Assembly (NCBI GenBank): GCA_000092065.1
Contig: CP000583.1
DNA from: Ostreococcus lucimarinus
Lineage: Eukaryota
DNA: 64,000 nt
Reading direction: 5' to 3' (one strand)
Shown here one piece after another: positions 2,023-19,568 of this stretch; positions within the stretch are counted from its first letter, which is position 1, and the number at the start of each line of letters is the position of its first letter. Both the position numbers and the translations under genes were made by a program. The notes beneath the pieces are model-generated. The model ran no database searches. It was not told the DNA's origin and worked only from the letters and a program-made list of their open reading frames with translations.

Positions 2023-3180
2023 CTACGTTGTTGCCCGTCTCGCGTTTTCGTGCTTGAGCTGGCTCGCGACGAGCTTCCGAATGCTCGCGCTCTCTTTGAT
2101 CAGAAACGAGTCATCGCGGTCGTTTTGGTGTCGCGTCATCACTTTTTTGACGACTTTTTGCTCCACGATGCTCGCCAAAGCTGCCTCGCACGCGCCCGTG
2201 TCGACGAGAAGTTGCACGTAATCGCAACACAGCTTCCTCACCGCGACTTCTACTGCTGAGTGAGTTATCTTCTTACCGGCGACTTCGTTAATTGGCTCAT
2301 CGATACGCGTCGCGGCGTCGCACGCTTCGTCGAGCGCTTCGCTCTCTTCCGCGTCGACGTCCTCTTCTCCGCCAACCTCGACTTTGACTTCGTCCACGTT
2401 GGCAGCACGATGCGCCGAGCCGTCGCGATGCTTGCAAGCAGCGATGAAAAATTCGACCGCTTCATCTCCTCTCACGGTTGAACATCGCGTGAGATCGATA
2501 TCGTTCGCCGCCGAGCACTCGTAGTCTTGCTTCAGCGCTCCAGGCTCCGCTTTCGCCGATTCACCACCGCGCAACATCAGTTGCGCGCTCAAATTCCTAT
2601 ACGTCGCCTTGCTCGTCGCCTTTGCGTGCAATTTCATCTCTTCCTTCACCGCCTCCTCGACCGCCGATTTACGCTCATCTGGATGTGCAGATATCCACGC
2701 TTCGCTCACGCGCTCCCTGACTCCGACGTTCGCCCGACTGCGAAGCTTTCTCGCCGCGAGCGCGTTCAGAAATCGCTGTCGCACCGCTCGCGGCACCTTC
2801 GCCGGCGCTCGCATCGAAAACGCCTGCGTCACCATCGGCCGTTCGCTCTCCGGTAAATGCATCAATAATTTCGCATCCTCCTTCGCCCACGCCTCGGCGT
2901 CGACCGCGTTCGGCGTCGACGGCGCCGTCGACGGCGCCCGCGCCGGCGCCGCCGTCCCGCGCGCGCCGTCGTCCGCCGCCCGCGCCGCCGCCCGGCGATC
3001 TCCCGGCGGACGAAACGGCGCGTCTTTGCGCTCGCGCGTGAGTTCTTCGAGCGGGACGAACGTCCGTCGTCGACCGAGCGGTTGAACGCCGTCGACGTCG
3101 CGCGTCGACGCGTCGGCGTCGTCGGAGGAAGATTCTGCGAGCGCCGCGGCGCGCGCCAAGATGGCCTCGCGACGGCTCAT
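2023..3180 (-). CDS. Hypothetical nuclear protein, weakly TFIIS-central-domain-like (KATYRNLSAQLMLRGG motif)
   Basis: 394-aa ORF on the minus strand. The ORF-track start is TTG; the first ATG (MSRREAIL) is at 3180. The assignment to TFIIS domain II is by motif recollection only. Confidence 0.35.
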   Translation of the reverse strand: MSRREAILARAAALAESSSDDADASTRDVDGVQPLGRRRTFVPLEELTRERKDAPFRPPGDRRAAARAADDGARGTAAPARAPSTAPSTPNAVDAEAWAKEDAKLLMHLPESERPMVTQAFSMRAPAKVPRAVRQRFLNALAARKLRSRANVGVRERVSEAWISAHPDERKSAVEEAVKEEMKLHAKATSKATYRNLSAQLMLRGGESAKAEPGALKQDYECSAANDIDLTRCSTVRGDEAVEFFIAACKHRDGSAHRAANVDEVKVEVGGEEDVDAEESEALDEACDAATRIDEPINEVAGKKITHSAVEVAVRKLCCDYVQLLVDTGACEAALASIVEQKVVKKVMTRHQNDRDDSFLIKESASIRKLVASQLKHENARRATT

Positions 3181-3348
3181 CGTCCTCGACGCGACGAAAC
3201 GGTCCAAGGTGCTCGCGCGCGGCGCATGTTCGCGCGCGCGTTCGCGCGCGACGCGCGACGCGGCGTTAAATGAAGGGTTGAATGATTTACTACAACTTTC
3301 CTACGCCGCGCCGCGAGACGCGGAGTGGCTCGCTAAAGAATTAAATCG

Positions 3349-6566: not shown

Positions 6567-7499
6567 TCACCATCCCGACTGCTTGAGCGTCTCGTAAACG
6601 CCAAAGGAAATCGCGGAACCGGGCGCGACCGCGGCGACGCGCGCGCCCGCGCCCGCGAACAATCCACGCGCGCCTTCGCGCTTAAACACGTCTCGTAACA
6701 CCTCACGCAACGACGCCGACGTCGTCGTCTCGAACCGCATCGTCTGCAAGCGCGTCTTGGCCAAATCGAGCGGGTGCGTGAGCGTCGTCGCCGCCGTCGC
6801 CGCCGCCGTCGCGCTCACCGCGCTCACCATCGGCGACGCCTCACCACCGCTCGACTCCAACGCAACGCGCGATCGTTCGTATATCGCAAAGTACGCCGCC
6901 GACCACGGCCACCACACGAAATTCTGCGCCCAGTATCCCCGAAACAGTCCCCGCGCGCCCTCCTCTCGCGCGATGACGCGCGCCGCGTCCACCCAATGTC
7001 TATACCGTCCCATCCTCGCGCGTTCGCCCAGCACGTCTTGCGTCTGCAATCTTTCCTTTATCACGTCCATCGGCGTGTACACCACTCCCGCGAGCGCTTG
7101 CGCCCACATCCCCGTCGCCGCGCTCGCGCTCGCGCTCGTCCCGAACCATCGCGTCCCGCTCTCGTACCCGACGAAGTACGCCCCGCTCGCGAGCGGCGCG
7201 AGCGCCGCGACGGCGCCGAATCCTTTATATAATCCCACCGCGCGCGTTCGTCCGCCCTCGGCGCGCGCGACGGCGCCGCGCGCGCCTCGGACTTGCGCGC
7301 GCGCCTTGAGCGTGTCCATGGGGTGCGTCAAGAAACGCGCCGCGAGCCCGCTGACGGCGCCGCGCGCGCCGTCGGCGAGGACGCCGTCGAGCGCGGACGC
7401 CGCGGCGGGGTCCGCGCCGCGCGCGCGGGCGCTCGACATGCGGCGAGCGACGCGCGCCGCGTCCGCGTGTGACGCGTGTGTTGTGTGATAAATACACAC
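6567..7499 (-). CDS. Mitochondrial carrier family (SLC25) protein
   Basis: Three repeats with P-x-D-x-x-K-x-R signatures (PMDTLKARAQ, PMDVIKERLQ, PLDLAKTRLQ). ATG at 7499; alternative start MSSAR at 7437. Confidence 0.75.
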   Translation of the reverse strand: MCIYHTTHASHADAARVARRMSSARARGADPAAASALDGVLADGARGAVSGLAARFLTHPMDTLKARAQVRGARGAVARAEGGRTRAVGLYKGFGAVAALAPLASGAYFVGYESGTRWFGTSASASAATGMWAQALAGVVYTPMDVIKERLQTQDVLGERARMGRYRHWVDAARVIAREEGARGLFRGYWAQNFVWWPWSAAYFAIYERSRVALESSGGEASPMVSAVSATAAATAATTLTHPLDLAKTRLQTMRFETTTSASLREVLRDVFKREGARGLFAGAGARVAAVAPGSAISFGVYETLKQSGW

Positions 7500-7635
7500 A
7501 TCGGTGCTTTTTCGATTAAATACGTAAAGTAGGGTTTACGTGGTGCGTCGACGTCGATGCGTCGCGCGCTTATCCGGCGCGCGCCGCAGACGACGACGCG
7601 CGCGCGCCACGCGAGCGGCGCGCGACGCGGCGCAC

Positions 7636-10600
7636 ATGACGCCCGCATCGCGCGATGCGCGCGCGAGCCCGCGCGGTGCGGCGCGCGCGACGCGAGCGCC
7701 GCGAATGCGCGCGCGGCGCGGCGACGTCGCATCGTCCCGAGGACGACGACCGCGCGCGCCGCGCCCGCGCGCGAGCGTCGACGAAGAGCGCTCCGAGCGC
7801 GCGGACAGCGCCGACGGTGCGTCGACGAGCGCGAGGCGGCCGACGATGGAGCTGCAGATGACGCCCGCGAGCGGGGCCCCGTTCGGGGGGTCCAGGGTGG
7901 TGGACTTTGTCGCGGCGTGGGACGCGATATCGCCGCGATTGGCGGCGCGCGAACACGGAGAGGCGGACAAGGAGATGCTGCTGAGCGCGTTGACGCTCGC
8001 CATACCGCGGCTGCAGCAGATCGTGCGAACGGAAGGGAAAGGAAAGAAGCCGGCGCACGAGCGAGCGGTGGACGTGACGCTCACGCTCGTGGACATGGGG
8101 ATGGACGCGGAATGCATCTCCGCGGGATTGCTTCGAGAGGCCGTGGTGCACGGGACGGTGAGTTTGGATGAGATAGAGGACGTGCTCGGGGAGCGGGTGA
8201 TGCGGTTGGCGCACGATGTGGGGCGAGTGCACGATTTACCGAGACGAGTGCACTCGTACGACGAAAACGCGGCGGAACGCTTGCGGTCGTTTTACCTGTC
8301 GTTTCACGACATAAGAGCGATCGTGGTGGAGTTGGCGTGCAGACTTGATACTTTGAGAAACATCGATGAGCTTGAGCCGATCCAGCGGACGACGATTGCG
8401 TTGGAGACGATGCAGATTTACGCCCCCATGGCGCACGCGTTGAACACGGGCGCCCTTTGCGCAGAGTTGGAAGATTTAGCGTTTAAGATTTTGTTTCCGA
8501 CGTCTTACGCCTCGCTGGAGAGGTGGCTGACGGCAAAAAGTCCAGGGGACTCGGCCATCTTGGATAAGATGACAAAGATGCTCACGGATACGATGAACGC
8601 CGACACGACGATGAACGCGTTGATCGGCCGCGGAGGGGTCAAGGTTTTGGCGAGAAGGAAATCTCGTTACTCCACCATGAAGAAGATCATTCGCGATGGG
8701 CGAAAGCGTGAAGAGGTGCACGATTTGCTCGGACTACGCCTCGTTTTGACCCCGCAACCTGGGAGTGGGGCGGAATTGCCCGGCATGGGTCAGGTGTATT
8801 CGGGTGAGGTTACGTACGAGCACATGGAGGCGAGAGCGTTAAAAGCGGCGAACGCGGCGTGCTATCGCGCACAGCAAATAGTGCACGGTTTATTTCCAGC
8901 CGTAAGCGGACGAACCAAGGACTACATCAGTGATCCCAAGGCGAACGGATACTCGTCCTTGCACAGCACTCTCAAGGTCGCGTTTGGCGACGACGGCAAA
9001 CCTTTGGCGTCGAGCGAAGCGTACAAACGCGGCGTGAATGTCGAGATGCAGATCCGAACGGCAGCCATGCATCTCGCCGCTGAAGCGGGCACTGCGTCGC
9101 ACAATTCGTATAAGGGTGGCTTGAAGGAAGACACGGGTATGGCGGGCTCGCTCGCGGACTTGGCCTCGGCAGCGAATCGCGCCGCGGAGGAAAAGTTTGG
9201 CGCTTTCACGCACGCCGATTTGCGCGAACGCGACGAACTCCACGACAGATTGTTCGAAGCATTCGATCTTGATGGTGATGGTCGCGTCACGATGAGTGAG
9301 CTGCGTACGGTACTGGAGAAAATATGGGACACGGAGATGAACGATTTGCGCGAGGAAGCTCACGCGTTGATGGAGCTCCTCGACGTTAACCAGGATGGTA
9401 CTATCGACGCTGATGAATTTGCAAAGTTCCGCGCGTCGCTCACCGCGATTAGTGCGCTACCTAAAGCGGATGCGGCGACCTTGGCGGCGATTGAAGCCGT
9501 TGCGATTGACGTTGAGATCGCCGAAGACGCGCCGGCGGCGCAAGTCGAGGACAAAGCTTTGGTGATTGACGTCAACCCCACGGAGGTGCCCACGGGTGAA
9601 AATATCGAAGAGAAGGCCGAATTGATAGCCACCGTGCGCGCGAAGGTACGAGCCGCGGTATCTGAGAGCTACGAGTACACCGGTAAAGTAGATTTAGCCG
9701 GGCGCAAGGCAACTGCGGCGATGCGCGATTCCGAGTCGGGTCCGGTGGAATGGCAACTGGTGTGGGATTTGATGCGAACTGGTCGAGCCGAGACAGCGCG
9801 TCAACTGTTTTACCAGCGTACTACGCGAGCGCCGAGTCAGATTCTTGTATGGGAGCAGTGGGCACGTTTTGAGCTTCTTCAAGGAGACCCCGAACGCGCG
9901 CGAAGCCTCTACCGCGCTGCATTGTTGCACTGCGAAGATCAGCCCATGGTGCGGGCCGAAATTTTGCGAAAATGGGCCATGATGGAGATAGTATCCACCG
10001 ATGCGCTGCACCAAACGTCTCATTCTGATTTGTTTTCTCGCACGATTGCGGTGCTGGCAGAGGCTCAGAGCAAAGGGCGCATCACTGCCGAGGAGTCTGG
10101 CTCAGCGCAAGCGAAGACGTACCAAGTTTGGGCGCAGGGGCTCGCTCGTGCGGGGAACATCGACGAAGCGAGAAAACTTTTGGATAAGGCTATCGATCTG
10201 GACGAAAACAATGCAGCCGTTGCGCACGCTCAAGGGCAAATCGAGGAAACGCTCGATAACTTCCCGGCAGCCATCGCCGCGTATCGTCGGGGTCTCGAAG
10301 CGAACCCGAACGACGCCTACTTGCTTCAGTCGTGGGGTCGAATCGAGGCGAAGATGGGTCGTTTGGACAACGCTCGAAAGCTGTTTAGACACGGCGTCGA
10401 AACAAACGAGGAAAATTACCACATTCCCCAGGCTTGGGCGGTGAGTGAGGCGGAGCATCCAGAAGGCGACGCGGCGACGGCGCGTGAAATGTTTCAACGC
10501 GCGAGCTCACTCGCGTACTGGTCCGTCCAAACCTGGGCTGCTTGGGCGCGCTTTGAACTGGACGCGGAAGATAACGAGCAAAGGCTTGAAACTGCGCGCA

Positions 10601-11175
10601 CGCTGTATGAACGCGGTCTCGATGCCGAACCCGGGAACTTGGTGTGTCTCGTCGGCCTCGCAAAGTGCGAGAGTCGACTCGGTCGCTTTGGCGCCGCCCG
10701 CGAAACGCTTCGCCGAGCGAACGCCATCCATCCCGATTCCTCAGCTCTGTGCTTCGCCCAAGCCAGACTCGAAGAAGCCGCGGGCGCGCCCGCGAAAGCC
10801 GCCCACCTCTACCAAAAAGCTCGCCAACTCCAAAAAGAAAGCCGCAAGAAAAAGTCGCGCGTCTCGACGCGCGGTCGCGGTTCCCGCTCCACCTGGGACC
10901 CCGTCGAAGCGTTCGAACGCCAAGAAATCGCATCGGCATCCATCATCTACGCCACCACCGACGACAACCACTTCGCCCACATGGACGAACAAGACGCCAA
11001 CGGCTTTTCCGAGGACGAAAAGCGTCGCTCGAGCGACGATTTGGGCAGTTACGAGCCCCCTCGCTCGTACGAGCGTCGCCGCGTTCGCAAGACGCGCCGC
11101 GCGCCCTCGACGCGCGTCGCCCCGCGCGCCGCCGACGACGACGACGTCCTCGGCAGTAGCCTCGACTCCCTTTAA
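7636..11175 (+). CDS. RelA/SpoT homolog of CRSH type with a C-terminal HAT (half-a-TPR) repeat region, in one uninterrupted frame. The N-terminal HD-like domain has a degenerate HD motif; it is followed by a (p)ppGpp synthetase domain and two EF-hands
   Basis: Synthetase motifs (RRKSRYSTMKKI..., YISDPKANGYSSLHSTLKV, EMQIRTAAMHLAAEAGTASHNSYKGG). EF-hands DLDGDGRVTMSEL and DVNQDGTIDADEF. HAT-like W..WA.FE repeats from about residue 740. The ORF track starts at GTG 7540; the first ATG is 7636 (later ATGs are possible). Confidence 0.8.
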   Translation: MTPASRDARASPRGAARATRAPRMRARRGDVASSRGRRPRAPRPRASVDEERSERADSADGASTSARRPTMELQMTPASGAPFGGSRVVDFVAAWDAISPRLAAREHGEADKEMLLSALTLAIPRLQQIVRTEGKGKKPAHERAVDVTLTLVDMGMDAECISAGLLREAVVHGTVSLDEIEDVLGERVMRLAHDVGRVHDLPRRVHSYDENAAERLRSFYLSFHDIRAIVVELACRLDTLRNIDELEPIQRTTIALETMQIYAPMAHALNTGALCAELEDLAFKILFPTSYASLERWLTAKSPGDSAILDKMTKMLTDTMNADTTMNALIGRGGVKVLARRKSRYSTMKKIIRDGRKREEVHDLLGLRLVLTPQPGSGAELPGMGQVYSGEVTYEHMEARALKAANAACYRAQQIVHGLFPAVSGRTKDYISDPKANGYSSLHSTLKVAFGDDGKPLASSEAYKRGVNVEMQIRTAAMHLAAEAGTASHNSYKGGLKEDTGMAGSLADLASAANRAAEEKFGAFTHADLRERDELHDRLFEAFDLDGDGRVTMSELRTVLEKIWDTEMNDLREEAHALMELLDVNQDGTIDADEFAKFRASLTAISALPKADAATLAAIEAVAIDVEIAEDAPAAQVEDKALVIDVNPTEVPTGENIEEKAELIATVRAKVRAAVSESYEYTGKVDLAGRKATAAMRDSESGPVEWQLVWDLMRTGRAETARQLFYQRTTRAPSQILVWEQWARFELLQGDPERARSLYRAALLHCEDQPMVRAEILRKWAMMEIVSTDALHQTSHSDLFSRTIAVLAEAQSKGRITAEESGSAQAKTYQVWAQGLARAGNIDEARKLLDKAIDLDENNAAVAHAQGQIEETLDNFPAAIAAYRRGLEANPNDAYLLQSWGRIEAKMGRLDNARKLFRHGVETNEENYHIPQAWAVSEAEHPEGDAATAREMFQRASSLAYWSVQTWAAWARFELDAEDNEQRLETARTLYERGLDAEPGNLVCLVGLAKCESRLGRFGAARETLRRANAIHPDSSALCFAQARLEEAAGAPAKAAHLYQKARQLQKESRKKKSRVSTRGRGSRSTWDPVEAFERQEIASASIIYATTDDNHFAHMDEQDANGFSEDEKRRSSDDLGSYEPPRSYERRRVRKTRRAPSTRVAPRAADDDDVLGSSLDSL

Positions 11176-11844
11176 CGGCGCGCGCACCTTTTCTCGCCCG
11201 CCATCCGTCCTTCGCGCGACCTCGGACCCGCGCCTCGCCTCGCGGCGCGTCGACGAAGAAACGACGAATGGCGTCGCGCGCGGCGTCCACGCGCGCCGAC
11301 GCGCGACCGCCCGCCCGACCCCGGGATCGCCGCGAAATCCTCGCGCGCGCGCGCGCGCGCGTCGCTCGAATCACGACTCGTCGAGTCCCTCTTTTTTTCC
11401 CAGCCCGTCGATACTGTTTGCGCGGCCGACGCCCGGCCGCGACGGCCCCCCGCGACGTCCCGCGGCGGTTTCGGGCGCGCTGGCGTGTGTAAAACGACCG
11501 ATCGTGACTCAAGCGCCGTTTACGTATTGCGCGCGCATTTCGCCAATGTATCGCGAACGCGACGCGCGCGTCGTCTCCGGGCGGTCGGTCGCCCGCCCCG
11601 CGCGACGCGCGCGAGCCGCGACGTCGACGCGCGCGCGGCAGTCGCCCGCGCGCGCGACCGCGCGAGCGCGCGCGAACGCGCGAACCGCGCGCGCGCGACC
11701 GACGGGCGAGGGAATCGACGCGCGCGCGACGATCTCGGCGACGGATCGAAGACGCGATCGATCGATCGAAGATATTTCCGCGGGCAGCGCTGGCGGAAAC
11801 GGCGCGCGCGACGCGCGCGAGGGCGAGGACGCGCGCGAGACGGG

Positions 11845-12684
11845 ATGCCGTCGATGACGCGGAGTCGAACGGACTCGCCGAACGCGATCGCGGCGATCGC
11901 GGTGGACGTCGCGGTGCGAGCGCTGGGAGGGAGGCGGGCGACGGAGGCGGGGACGGCGAGCGACGAGGCGAGCGAGGTGGTCGACGCGTTGTTGCCCAGG
12001 GTGACGCGGTTGAGCGTGCGAAAGCGATTGTCGGGGCGGGGGGGGAAGAGTGATAGAGAGGGACGGGTGGGGGCAGACGAGATGGGGTTCGACGCGATGG
12101 ATGCGGATACGTTGTTCGGGGAAAGATCCACGGAGGGGTCGCTTCGCGGAGGCACGGCGATGTTTCACGAACGAAAAAACTCGTTCGATGGGGAAATTAA
12201 ATTTGAATCGGCGTTGCCGACGGCGTCGGACGATGCGGTGATTCCGACCGAGGAGGGTGGGCGGCGACCGCCGACGCCGGGTAAGACTCGCCCTTGGTTG
12301 AAGGAATCGCGAGCGACTCCGATGCAAGTCGACGACGAGCGAGCGAAGACTTGCGGCGACGCCGTGCCCAGTATTTTGGCTTCGCCGAAGAGAAACGGAT
12401 CCATGCTGATCCTGAATGCGGAAGATCACGATACAAAGATGCGCTGCGTGGGAACGCCGACGTTGGTGCCGCGCGCGCGTCGCGCCGAAGTCAATTCCCC
12501 GACGTTGGTTGGGGTCGAATCGCCGTCGGCGGGTACGCCCTCCGAACAATCCATCGAGACGTCTGACCACAAGCCGTTCAGTCGTAGCGCATCCACGCTG
12601 TCGACGGTATCTCTCGCCTCGGCGTTCAGCCCGGTCTCTCGACCGATGTCGAGGAATGCATCCCAAGAAGACCTCAGTAAATGA
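11845..12684 (+). CDS. Hypothetical Ser/Pro/Thr-rich disordered protein
   Basis: ATG-initiated 279-aa reading frame with host-like GC3 codon usage and no recognisable domain. The upstream part of the track ORF looks non-coding. Confidence 0.3.
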   Translation: MPSMTRSRTDSPNAIAAIAVDVAVRALGGRRATEAGTASDEASEVVDALLPRVTRLSVRKRLSGRGGKSDREGRVGADEMGFDAMDADTLFGERSTEGSLRGGTAMFHERKNSFDGEIKFESALPTASDDAVIPTEEGGRRPPTPGKTRPWLKESRATPMQVDDERAKTCGDAVPSILASPKRNGSMLILNAEDHDTKMRCVGTPTLVPRARRAEVNSPTLVGVESPSAGTPSEQSIETSDHKPFSRSASTLSTVSLASAFSPVSRPMSRNASQEDLSK

Positions 12685-17524: not shown

Positions 17525-17711
17525 CGCTCCACGCACCACGTGGCGCATTTTAACGATCGCGCCTATATACATACATACACGCGCACTGTTTGCCCATACG
17601 TGCCAGCTGGCACCGGCGAAAATAGCCGCGGGGGATCGACGCGATCGAACGGATCGAACGCGTCAGAGCGTGTCGCGCGAGCGCCCGTCGATCGAACCGT
17701 CGACGCGCGTC

Positions 17712-19568
17712 ATGGCGCGACAGCGCTCCTTCGTCGCCGCGGCCGTCGCGGTCGCGCTCGCGTGCGTGGCGCTCGGCCCGATCGCGGGCGCGAACGCGGG
17801 ACACGATGGGTGGGGACCGAATCCCACGCCCACGTCGTCGAATTCGTACAACAATCCGGGGTACTACGGTCCGTACTACGGAGGCGGGTCGACCTGTCCG
17901 CCGACGGTGACGACGTTCGGGAGAGACGCCAACTGCCCGACGTCCGCGGGCGATTGCGGCACGACGTCGTTTTATGGAAGTTCGGATTGCCAGCAAATGA
18001 CGTGGGAGTACGACAATTACAAGTATTACGTCCTCGACGGGCAACCGAACTTGCCGGAACCGTTCACGGGCATTCCGCGCGTGAACATCGAGACGAATGA
18101 GAAGTATGAAGGTCAGATGGCCCTGGATCGGGCGTACGTCGGATCGATCGTCGGTCAAGCGCTGCCGGGCATCGTCATCGCCATCATGTTGTTCGCTTCG
18201 ATGCTTTTGGTGTGCTTCTTCTACCTCATCTCCTCCGTGTGCAAGTGCTGCGGCGTGTGCAAATGCTGCTTCCGACCGAGACCGTATACGCGCAAGGCTT
18301 TGCACGTGGCCAAGGGAGTGCAACTCTTGTTTGTGGCTCTGTGCTTCTGCGGTTGCGTCGTCATCTACGCCGCGTCTCCGGACGTCTCCAGCGGCGTGCG
18401 AACGATCACGAGCGGTTTGGTCAACGCCACGAACGACCTGTCGAACGATGTGAGCTCGCTCCAGACGACATTAGCTGCCGTTCAATCGACCGACATGGAC
18501 ACCGCCGAACTCACTGACCTGAGCACCGCGGCTACCACGGCAAACGTGGAAATTACCAAGACGAAGAATAGCATCGACAAAGCACAAGAAGACGTCCAAC
18601 TCGCCGCCGACATCGTCGCCGGTGTTCTCCTCGGCGTTGCCGTGATCACGATGGTACTCTCTGTGCTGAACTTCTGGCGCTTACTCATCATTTTCTCCGT
18701 CTTGACGTCTTTGATTTTGATCGCCACGTGGATCGTCGTCGGCGCCTTGGCCGCCGTCGGCGTCTTCCTCGACGACTTGTGCTACACGATGGATTTGTAC
18801 GTCCAAAATCCGGATTCTGTCTCCATCAGCAAGGAAATTCCGTGCCCAGACGCGAAAGATGTCGTCCAATTCGGTTCAAAGTTCCGCGAACAAATCAACA
18901 TCATGGTGCATGACCTCAACGACAAAGTTTTCACGCACAACGGTGGTGTGGGTGCTGGAAACCAAAAAAATTTTCTGTGCCCGGCCTATGAAAAGCAGAC
19001 CTGGGATAACTTGTGCGGTACCGCCTCCCAACGTAATGCTGGTTCCTGGGTATCCCCGTTATGGAGCGACGAATTCGCAAACAAAGCCTGCGAAGCCTAC
19101 CACAGGGGCGACCTCGGCGGCACGTCCGCGGCCCCGTCGGCTACGTTCACGCCCTTTGTGACGTGGGATTGTCGGTCAGGCGACACTCCTAGCGGCTACC
19201 TCAACTTCACGTTGAGTTCAAGTACACGCGTTACCCAGACAATCGGCGGGGACATTGGGACTTACTACAACGGAGTAAGTGGCGTGACGACGCAGATGGT
19301 CAGCGACATCACGAACGTCTACAACGTCATTTGGCAGTTTGAGTCCATCCTCAAGTGCGACTTCATCTCCAACACGTTCATGTGGGTTCAACCGGGCTGC
19401 CGCGAAGCCGTTGACGCCATTCAGCTCATGTGGAGAGGTTTCATCGTCACCGCCACCGGCTACTTGTGCTTGTGGATCACCATGCTCGTCACCCTCGGCC
19501 GCATGGCCAACGCCGACTTGATGATTGACGGCGGTAAGTTCAACGCCAAGAAGGCTGGTTTGATCTAA
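17712..19568 (+). CDS. Five-pass membrane glycoprotein with a prominin/tweety-like topology: signal peptide, 5 predicted TM helices, two large loops, and a Cys cluster CKCCGVCKCC after TM1
   Basis: Hydrophobic segments at about residues 150-177, 215-235, 300-325, 330-360 and 585-605 of the ORF translation. Assignment is by topology only. Confidence 0.55.
   Translation: MARQRSFVAAAVAVALACVALGPIAGANAGHDGWGPNPTPTSSNSYNNPGYYGPYYGGGSTCPPTVTTFGRDANCPTSAGDCGTTSFYGSSDCQQMTWEYDNYKYYVLDGQPNLPEPFTGIPRVNIETNEKYEGQMALDRAYVGSIVGQALPGIVIAIMLFASMLLVCFFYLISSVCKCCGVCKCCFRPRPYTRKALHVAKGVQLLFVALCFCGCVVIYAASPDVSSGVRTITSGLVNATNDLSNDVSSLQTTLAAVQSTDMDTAELTDLSTAATTANVEITKTKNSIDKAQEDVQLAADIVAGVLLGVAVITMVLSVLNFWRLLIIFSVLTSLILIATWIVVGALAAVGVFLDDLCYTMDLYVQNPDSVSISKEIPCPDAKDVVQFGSKFREQINIMVHDLNDKVFTHNGGVGAGNQKNFLCPAYEKQTWDNLCGTASQRNAGSWVSPLWSDEFANKACEAYHRGDLGGTSAAPSATFTPFVTWDCRSGDTPSGYLNFTLSSSTRVTQTIGGDIGTYYNGVSGVTTQMVSDITNVYNVIWQFESILKCDFISNTFMWVQPGCREAVDAIQLMWRGFIVTATGYLCLWITMLVTLGRMANADLMIDGGKFNAKKAGLI

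Follow-up and report, generated by a model that had tools for sequence, protein, structure and literature searches.

An RSH4/CRSH (p)ppGpp synthetase of Ostreococcus lucimarinus with a C-terminal HAT/TPR tail predicted from a single open reading frame

Introduction

Is the long open reading frame at 7540..11175 on the forward strand of a 64-kb stretch of the Ostreococcus lucimarinus CCE9901 genome (64,000 nucleotides, the window) a single gene in which a Ca2+-gated alarmone synthetase is joined to an array of helical repeats, and, if so, what might those repeats contact? Ca2+-activated synthesis of ppGpp, which acts in plastids, has been demonstrated only for plant CRSH enzymes, and algal RSH4 enzymes often bear novel C-terminal domains, which reviews regard only as potential new inputs for regulation (PMC10107265). 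A preliminary description of the locus had held that no known CRSH protein continues past its EF-hands and that a fusion of this kind has not been described. Neither statement stands, as C-terminal TPR domains on green-algal RSH4 were reported by Ito et al. 2017, according to Avilan et al. 2019 (PMC6881373), and Table S2 of the latter enters a TPR for O. tauri (OUS43685.1), Klebsormidium (nitens GAQ91082.1), and Chlorella. The fusion of RSH4 with a C-terminal TPR domain was known before the present analysis, and what is added here is modest: an affinity of the tail to the Mbb1/HCF107 family from outside that clade, a generic TPR fold, and a charge that is not consistently basic. In the accessible portions of the green-algal RSH4 papers, the tail is given only as a TPR domain acquired in some green algae, and neither kinship with Mbb1/HCF107 nor tails in Micromonas or liverworts were found there (PMC6881373). 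Literature searches found nothing joining ppGpp with HCF107, Mbb1, or HAT, or with Ostreococcus.

Results

The reading frame and its gene model

The uninterrupted 1211-aa frame first proposed exists exactly so, with 1211 codons counted from a GTG and then a stop codon, no in-frame stops (36 and 38 in the other two forward frames), and a coding-type GC1/GC2/GC3 pattern that is continuous across the linker preceding the repeats. The frame corresponds to RefSeq XP_001416591.1, with which its translation is identical from M103 on, and the exact protein is also present in two places on Tara Oceans metagenome contigs syntenic with the window. These contigs are genomic and were rejected as transcript evidence. 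A tRNA scan of the whole window found no tRNA genes.

The sequence 5' of M103 matches the N-termini of orthologues, with RPRAPRPRASVDEE in the presequence region among the aligned residues, so translation probably begins at M33 (nt 7636) or at M56 (nt 7705). The resulting N-terminus (7636..7845) is Arg/Ser/Ala-rich and transit-peptide-like, with a net charge of +11 and a pI of 12, and has no counterpart in models starting at M103. A basic presequence of this composition is conserved in position among RSH4 orthologues, and its character would be compatible with plastid targeting of the O. lucimarinus protein. The RefSeq model also splices out as an intron an in-frame GT..AG interval of 72 nt (8765..8836), the encoded peptide of which is kept in other Ostreococcus clades, and it ends at aa 631 (nt 9432), directly after the EF-hands, where there is no stop and the open frame continues. 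This truncation hides the tail in O. lucimarinus and explains why Table S2 of Avilan et al. 2019 enters no TPR for the species (PMC6881373); domain surveys relying on the defective model undercount the fusion. The public model needs correction at its N-terminus, which is too short, at the doubtful 72-nt intron, and in its 3' half, which is absent.

A pseudo-hydrolase, a synthetase, and paired EF-hands

Pfam profile matches to RelA_SpoT, EF-hand_7, and TPR/HAT models (the last at ~aa 740-1100) bear out the proposed order of CRSH, EF-hands, and HAT/TPR array within one frame, and the N-terminal hydrolase-like and synthetase halves together match TIGR00691 (E 3.5e-57). The HD_4 pseudo-hydrolase (7990..8445, aa 151-302; Pfam E 9e-26) has its catalytic His and Asp replaced. 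When aligned with bacterial long RSH enzymes, HP is changed to ER, LLHDVVEDT to LLREAVVHG, and ADRLHN to ACRLDT, with the catalytic pairs HD and ED becoming RE and VH, and the domain is predicted to be catalytically dead. The RelA_SpoT (p)ppGpp synthetase (8653..9117, aa 372-526; Pfam E 3e-25) possesses all of its motifs (RRKSRYSTMKK; DLLGLR, including the conserved Gly of DxxGxR; KDYISDPKANGYSSLH; and EMQIRTAAMHLAAE..H..YK), which are invariant across 33 orthologues, and carries a lineage-variable insert at about aa 405-435. Judged by these motifs the synthetase is intact, and the same alignment upholds the earlier pairing of a degenerate hydrolase with an intact synthetase.

The EF-hand pair (9235..9429) has canonical loops at aa 576-587 (DLDGDGRVTMSE) and aa 615-626 (DVNQDGTIDADE) and is matched by EF-hand_7 (aa 566-630, E 3e-10) as well as EF-hand_1, EF-hand_5, and EF-hand_6. 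The Ca-ligand positions of both loops are invariant or nearly so among the 33 orthologues, in agreement with the claim of two canonical EF-hands. Profile searches of the translation found no match to a TGS or ACT domain. The best homologues belong to the EF-hand RSH proteins and not to RSH1 or RSH2/3, and the dead HD domain, intact synthetase, EF-hand pair, and placement of XP_001416591.1 with O. tauri RSH4 in the RSH4 clade of a published tree (Avilan et al. 2019, PMC6881373) assign the frame, as far as sequence can, to RSH4/CRSH.

A flexible linker and a HAT/TPR solenoid

The gap between EF-hands and repeats, put at ~100 aa when first noted, is an acidic linker (net -9) of about 110 aa (9430..9741) that contains conserved blocks in the orthologue alignment. 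AlphaFold2 predicts it to be partly disordered (aa ~657-689) and then to form a long helix running into the repeats; in the full-length model (pTM 0.48) the domains are confident and the linker low-confidence, and it is modelled as a flexible tether between the EF-hands and the solenoid. In the model of the tail (pLDDT 93.7), tandem hairpins of about 34 aa form an alpha-solenoid at 9742..10869 with 20 helices, or about 10 hairpin repeats, so the earlier count of at least 8 HAT/TPR-like repeats is correct. The remaining 10870..11175, up to the stop codon, is low-complexity and disordered (pLDDT below 50), with a short motif, RSTWDP, conserved among the Mamiellophyceae.

TPR profiles and one of three HAT profiles recognize the solenoid, with generic TPR models scoring far above HAT models. 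TPR_14 matches six stretches (1.7e-23) and is joined by TPR_2, TPR_19, and TPR_12, while of the HAT models HAT_PRP39_C is above its cut-off (35.9 bits, cut-off 33) and HAT_Syf1_CNRKL1_C (23 vs 27) and HAT_PRP39_N (24.1 vs 27.7) are below theirs. A HAT signature, consisting of an aromatic W/Y pair in helix A, a conserved E, and then AR-x-[ILV]-[FY]-[ED]-[RK] in helix B, is present in at least four repeats (VWEQWARFELLQGDPERARSLYRAAL, LQSWGRIEAKMGRLDNARKLFRHGV, PQAWAVSEAEH..ATAREMFQRAS, and TWAAWARFELD..ETARTLYERGL), and its columns are conserved.

Distribution of the fusion across the green lineage

A search for orthologues in other green algae recovered the same fusion. In at least nine Ostreococcus-like clusters (68-75% identity) the three modules lie together on one full-length ORF of 1100-1600 aa, as they also do in Bathycoccus prasinos, Micromonas commoda (XP_002501330.1), and M. 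pusilla (XP_003062410.1). O. tauri OUS43685.1 has pseudo-hydrolase, synthetase, two EF-hands, and TPR/HAT tail in the same order and is collinear to the C-terminus, and Klebsormidium nitens GAQ91082.1 shares the domain order. Beyond these, the fusion is present in Cymbomonas, Mesostigma, and the liverworts Marchantia paleacea and Calypogeia fissa, with the Marchantia tail collinear over the whole module (123 bits, E 2e-34). The tail was absent from the vascular plants sampled (one fern and one angiosperm); alignment with the fern and Ficus homologues extends over all of aa 103-640, and the sampled fern and angiosperm CRSH end shortly past the EF-hands, where the O. lucimarinus protein adds ~580 aa of linker, repeats, and disordered tail. 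Several chlorophyte relatives also lack it (Pyramimonas P0086, and P0075, P0082, and P0085), some of which may be fragments.

Because the tail is found from the Mamiellophyceae to the liverworts, its distribution suggests an ancestral trait lost in vascular plants, not a sporadic algal gain. The fusion is most parsimoniously an old Viridiplantae architecture retained by the Mamiellophyceae, some other prasinophytes, streptophyte algae, and liverworts. In a neighbour-joining tree the monophyly of all RSH4 tails received 37.5% bootstrap, so parsimony favours one ancient fusion but does not demonstrate it.

One gene or two

The point at which the RefSeq model stops is also where a CRSH gene would end (near 9.4-9.5 kb) if a separate HAT-repeat gene, with its own mRNA, began at an ATG near 9720. 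A conserved Met at about aa 727 could serve such a gene, and calls that start at an internal Met do occur; the one examined as a stand-alone HAT gene product, P0121, was rejected, and since its start lies inside repeat 2 it is a gene-caller artefact. Two genes are nevertheless very improbable here: the RefSeq end runs directly into open frame, the linker is coding-like in composition and contains conserved blocks, and all lineages of the Mamiellophyceae keep the frame open across it although their proteins diverge by 25-60%. Further, the three modules stand together in two UniProt entries of the A0A7S0 series, from O. mediterraneus (1175 aa) and M. pusilla (1406 aa), with no genomic contig recorded; this accession series derives from MMETSP transcriptomes. 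An extra internal transcript is possible and would leave the fusion protein in place.

Relatives of the tail and its potential ligand

The repeats had been likened to those of HCF107 and Mbb1, and that likeness holds. BLASTP of the tail gave Chlamydomonas Mbb1 (97 bits), potato HCF107 (84), and crooked-neck (55), an exhaustive HMMER search placed Mbb1/HCF107-type HAT proteins as the nearest non-RSH relatives, and most of the non-RSH sequences in the top 150 of that search reach 200-780 bits with an Mbb1/HCF107 HMM. Among stand-alone HAT proteins, those most strongly related to the tail are nearly all environmental sequences. The tail and Mbb1/HCF107 share about 10-11 tandem HAT hairpins (about 10 here, 11 in HCF107) with the signature W..W...E...G....AR.L[FY] and, presumably, the plastid compartment. 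HCF107 is without domains other than the HAT repeats and binds the psbH 5' UTR in vitro (PMC5897788), and the best natural PDB sequence matches of the tail are HAT RNA-processing factors (Clf1/Crn, Prp6, Syf1, and Rrp5). Together, these affinities would fit a sequence-specific RNA-binding array of the HCF107/Mbb1 type, tethering the Ca2+-gated synthetase to particular plastid transcripts or rRNA and directly linking alarmone production with RNA metabolism, as the preliminary description proposed.

Such an array is rather doubtful, however, when the same relatives are considered more closely. Identity to Mbb1/HCF107 is only about 28%, with scores inflated by register-shifted repeat matches, and in the neighbour-joining tree the Mbb1/HCF107 proteins are monophyletic (99.5% bootstrap) with all RSH4 tails excluded. 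By sequence, Mbb1/HCF107 is the closest named non-RSH family, with the tail outside its clade; membership in the orthogroup was ruled out on that placement and on the fusion to RSH and EF-hands, where HCF107 consists of repeats alone. The standing of TPR over HAT profiles, two of the three HAT models being under cut-off, also argues against it, as does a Foldseek search of the PDB with the tail model that ranked generic protein-binding TPR solenoids first (OGT, SPY, TTC7B, and APC/C). Orthologous tails carry net charges anywhere between -12 and +12, and that of O. lucimarinus carries -2, compared with +17 to +18 in plant HCF107. Charge and pI were equivocal as a proxy for RNA binding. Given the generic TPR fold and the lack of a consistent basic charge, we offer RNA binding by the tail as a hypothesis.

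These structural matches, the strength of TPR_14, TPR_2, and TPR_19, and a charge that in several orthologues is neutral to acidic would fit a tail that makes no direct contact with RNA and serves as a TPR scaffold between proteins or as an intramolecular regulator, for which possible roles include oligomerisation, Ca2+-relieved autoinhibition, and docking on a ribosomal, nucleoid, or thylakoid component. Most HAT proteins (Clf1, Syf1, Prp6, and CstF-77) act mainly as protein scaffolds in RNPs, and C-terminal gains by RSH4 are viewed in review as regulatory inputs. We give this reading a little less than an even chance, as the sequence affinity of the tail to Mbb1/HCF107 exceeds that to any protein-binding TPR family, and the lack of confident inter-domain packing at a pTM of 0.48 argues against a stable intramolecular clamp. 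At the other extreme, the tail could be a true RNA-recognition module, sister to Mbb1/HCF107, that was fused to the Ca2+-gated synthetase in the green-plant ancestor, addresses alarmone synthesis to specific plastid transcripts or ribosomes, and was lost in vascular plants; this fuller scenario we consider quite unlikely. Overall, an RNP or protein partner is somewhat more likely as ligand than naked, sequence-specific RNA.

Discussion

The explanation that we consider likely is a single nuclear gene encoding one RSH4/CRSH polypeptide of about 1150-1180 aa, a putative Ca2+-gated plastid synthetase with a HAT/TPR tail. The protein shares with Arabidopsis and rice CRSH a dead hydrolase, active-type synthetase motifs, and a C-terminal EF-hand pair, as well as, presumably, Ca2+-triggered ppGpp synthesis in the plastid. 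By homology to those enzymes, the polypeptide would be imported into the plastid, Ca2+ on the EF-hands would switch on (p)ppGpp synthesis, and (p)ppGpp would damp plastid transcription and translation. More tentatively, the HAT/TPR tail may be a docking or regulatory scaffold that replaces the lost TGS/ACT region of bacterial Rel, and by which the enzyme might be positioned or gated at some part of the apparatus for plastid gene expression. The bacterial long RSH enzymes (Rel/RelA/SpoT) have homologous N-terminal halves and a C-terminal regulatory region that tethers the enzyme to the translation apparatus; that region consists of TGS, helical, and ACT/RRM domains, whereas the O. lucimarinus protein has EF-hands and a HAT/TPR solenoid, and its hydrolase is predicted to be inactive.

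Targeted gene modification is reported to be feasible in Ostreococcus tauri, a relative with a collinear tail. A defined ligand, if the tail has one, would offer the first hint of the place and the target at which a (p)ppGpp synthetase of the plant lineage works within the plastid, and if the RNA-recognition reading were true, it would imply local, RNA-addressed stringent signalling in that organelle.

Reading frame and domain organization

The RSH4/CRSH gene occupies 1211 open codons on the plus strand (7540–11175; residues are numbered from the GTG at nt 7540), as the preliminary description had it, with only the start adjusted. Across this span the remaining two forward frames contain 36 and 38 stops, and the coding-type pattern of GC by codon position (GC3 high, GC2 low) is unbroken through the linker. 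Pfam places, all on the plus strand, HD_4 at residues 151–302 (E 9e-26), RelA_SpoT at residues 372–526 (E 3e-25), a pair of EF-hands (EF-hand_7) at residues 566–630 (E 3e-10) and six stretches of TPR_14 at residues ~740–1100 (E 1.7e-23). The NCBIfam spoT_relA model matches the N-terminal half (E 3.5e-57), and the NCBIfam search found neither a TGS nor an ACT domain. Set against the bacterial long RSH enzymes, the protein has lost its hydrolase signature (HP to ER, LLHDVVEDT to LLREAVVHG, ADRLHN to ACRLDT) and the synthetase motifs are all intact, such that the predicted enzyme would have a dead hydrolase and a live-looking synthetase. Both EF loops are canonical, with calcium-ligand positions invariant or nearly so among 33 orthologues. 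The proposed combination of degenerate hydrolase, intact synthetase and two canonical EF-hands is thus confirmed by Pfam and the motif alignment.

Between DxxGxR and KDYI (~8750–8850; residues ~405–435), and likewise in the orthologues P0040, P0013 and P0228, the synthetase domain has an insert that varies between lineages. Large low-complexity expansions are present at this insert and past the NGYxSLH motif in Bathycoccus and Micromonas.

An arrangement as two genes, with a CRSH gene ending near 9.5 kb and a separate HAT-repeat gene beyond it, is most improbable; it calls for a stop codon at about 9.5 kb, where none is present. The linker contains conserved blocks, and single ORFs that span all three modules at full length are widespread among relatives, including at least nine Ostreococcus-like clusters (68–75% identity), Bathycoccus prasinos, Micromonas commoda (XP_002501330.1, 1496 aa) and M. 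pusilla (XP_003062410.1, 1570 aa). For ~3.3 kb of frame to stay open through such divergence, selection must act along its entire length. P0121, a 409-aa homologue considered as a ‘stand-alone’ HAT protein, was rejected as a gene-caller fragment, its start being a Met within repeat 2. The exact protein is found on Tara Oceans contigs that are syntenic with the window, though these are genomic. Two UniProt entries of the A0A7S0 series, which probably derives from MMETSP transcriptome assemblies, have all three modules and no recorded genomic contig (O. mediterraneus, 1175 aa; M. pusilla, 1406 aa), and are the nearest approach to transcript evidence for the fusion.

Gene model and genomic surroundings

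The sequence ‘Ostreococcus_lucimarinus_CCE9901_XP_001416591.1’ in the supplementary FASTA of Avilan et al. 2019 (PMC6881373) begins MELQMTPASGAPFGG... and is identical to the ORF from residue 103, which places the ORF, by sequence identity, in O. lucimarinus nuclear DNA. This public RefSeq model appears truncated and is possibly mis-spliced: its last residue is 631 (nt 9432), a point with no stop codon, past which the frame continues, and it drops an in-frame 72-nt GT..AG interval (nt 8765–8836) whose peptide is kept in other Ostreococcus clades. The truncation accounts for Table S2 of Avilan et al. 2019 listing a TPR for O. tauri OUS43685.1, a protein collinear with the ORF up to the C-terminus, but not for O. 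lucimarinus. The translated stretch ahead of the annotated M103 (7540–7845) aligns with orthologue N-termini (RPRAPRPRASVDEE...). Because this alignment includes residues 80–100, M33 (nt 7636) or M56 (nt 7705) is the probable start of the protein, rather than the GTG or M103. With either start the protein would gain a very basic presequence resembling a transit peptide.

The neighbours are ordinary nuclear genes (ABC1 kinase, mitochondrial carrier, asparagine synthase, ADH-like gene and transaldolase). The mitochondrial-carrier gene (6567–7499, minus strand) is divergent from RSH4, and only ~200 bp (7440–7636) separate its first ATG (~nt 7439) from M33, which suggests a shared bidirectional promoter region. 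Four long ORFs, at 11485–12684, 226–1965 and 17670–19568 on the plus strand and at 2023–3207 on the minus strand, had no match to a Pfam family at E ≤ 1e-5; a 277-aa gene directly downstream of RSH4 on a syntenic Tara contig (L001) is likewise without a recorded Pfam match.

Nature of the C-terminal repeats

At least eight HAT/TPR-like repeats had been proposed for the tail, and AlphaFold2 predicts 20 helices in ~10 hairpins (mean pLDDT 93.7). Besides TPR_14, residues ~740–1100 are matched by TPR_2, TPR_19 and TPR_12, with HAT_PRP39_C marginally over its cut-off. In the full-length model (pLDDT 78.5, pTM 0.48), the segments joining the modules are not confidently placed, and pLDDT falls below 50 in the linker (residues ~657–689) and the last ~75 residues. 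Within the otherwise disordered C-terminus, a motif R/K-S/G-T-W-D/A-P (~10921–10938; residues ~1128–1133) is common to the Ostreococcus, Bathycoccus and Micromonas orthologues.

Among natural proteins in the PDB, the tail is closest in sequence to the HAT RNA-processing factors Clf1/Crooked-neck, Prp6, Syf1 and Rrp5, with OGT and TOM70 behind. BLASTP scores were 123 bits for the Marchantia RSH4 tail, 97 bits for Chlamydomonas Mbb1, 84 bits for potato HCF107 and 55 bits for Crooked-neck. The closest stand-alone homologue in the indexed search, P0123, is an Mbb1/HCF107-family protein (60% identity to Chlorella Mbb1, 50% to the Chlamydomonas MBB1 locus and ~40% to angiosperm HCF107). An exhaustive phmmer search of 1.84 billion representatives returned 12,089 matches at E ≤ 1e-3, and 16 of the best 150 have an RSH domain. 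Among the non-RSH proteins in that best 150, ~110 score >200 bits and 14 score >550 bits on an HMM built from 17 family sequences related to P0123, most of them annotated at source as Mbb1 or HCF107.

The comparison with HCF107 and Mbb1 therefore holds as resemblance (BLASTP, phmmer), but not as membership. In a neighbour-joining bootstrap tree the Mbb1/HCF107 family is monophyletic at 99.5% with every RSH4 tail outside; only one HAT Pfam model out of three clears its cut-off, and generic TPR models dominate; the Foldseek matches are generic TPR superhelices (OGT, SPY, TTC7B, Ctr9, Prp6 and APC/C); and the modules of the orthologues carry net charges anywhere between -12 and +12 (-2 in O. lucimarinus), against +17 to +18 in angiosperm HCF107. 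On these comparisons the tail resembles the family without belonging to it. HCF107 binds the psbH 5’ UTR in vitro (PMC5897788); comparable direct, sequence-specific recognition of RNA by the tail is unlikely, and a protein or RNP partner has a little under an even chance.

Distribution of the fusion

The tree of Avilan et al. 2019 places the gene in the RSH4/CRSH clade beside O. tauri RSH4. An identical module order occurs in Cymbomonas tetramitiformis, Mesostigma viride, Klebsormidium nitens and the liverworts Marchantia paleacea and Calypogeia fissa, while the fern and angiosperm homologues sampled stop shortly past the EF-hands. The Marchantia match is one collinear HSP across the whole module (E 2e-34). 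This distribution is most simply explained by a fusion that the common ancestor of green plants already had and that vascular plants and some chlorophytes later lost; as monophyly of the RSH4 tails reaches only 37.5% bootstrap in the neighbour-joining tree, a single ancestral fusion stays a parsimony argument. No RSH4 is listed for Micromonas in Avilan et al. 2019, yet XP_002501330.1 and XP_003062410.1 plainly have the RSH4-EF-TPR architecture. In the fern Adiantum capillus-veneris, the CRSH model (P0090) has a Rieske domain (PF00355) at its N-terminus, probably through fusion of a neighbouring gene into the model.

Relation to previous work and possible role

The feature is real and was correctly described, and its interpretation was partly correct; the claim that such an architecture had not been described fails, since this kind of RSH4 is already known: it is covered by Avilan et al. 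(PMC6881373), and a 2022 New Phytologist review (PMC10107265) restates that algal RSH4 enzymes often carry novel domains. The two canonical, invariant EF loops of Mamiellophyceae RSH4 bear on the section of that review on (p)ppGpp at night; elsewhere the review concedes EF-hands in ‘some green algae’. The searchable literature contained nothing linking ppGpp or RSH enzymes to the HCF107/Mbb1 HAT family, no paper on ppGpp in Ostreococcus and no function for the RSH4 tail.

By analogy with plant CRSH (PMC10107265), calcium binding would switch on ppGpp synthesis in the plastid, and plastid ppGpp would repress gene expression there, for instance when darkness sets in. Very tentatively, the solenoid may serve as a scaffold for docking or regulation, taking the part that the ribosome-sensing C-terminal region plays in bacterial Rel. 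An RNA-addressed alarmone synthetase ancestral in green plants is a decidedly doubtful prospect. The corrected O. lucimarinus gene model, the affinity of the tail to plastid HAT proteins and the fusion in Micromonas and liverworts are small additions of the present analysis, the last of which suggests that the fusion is ancestral and was not acquired sporadically.
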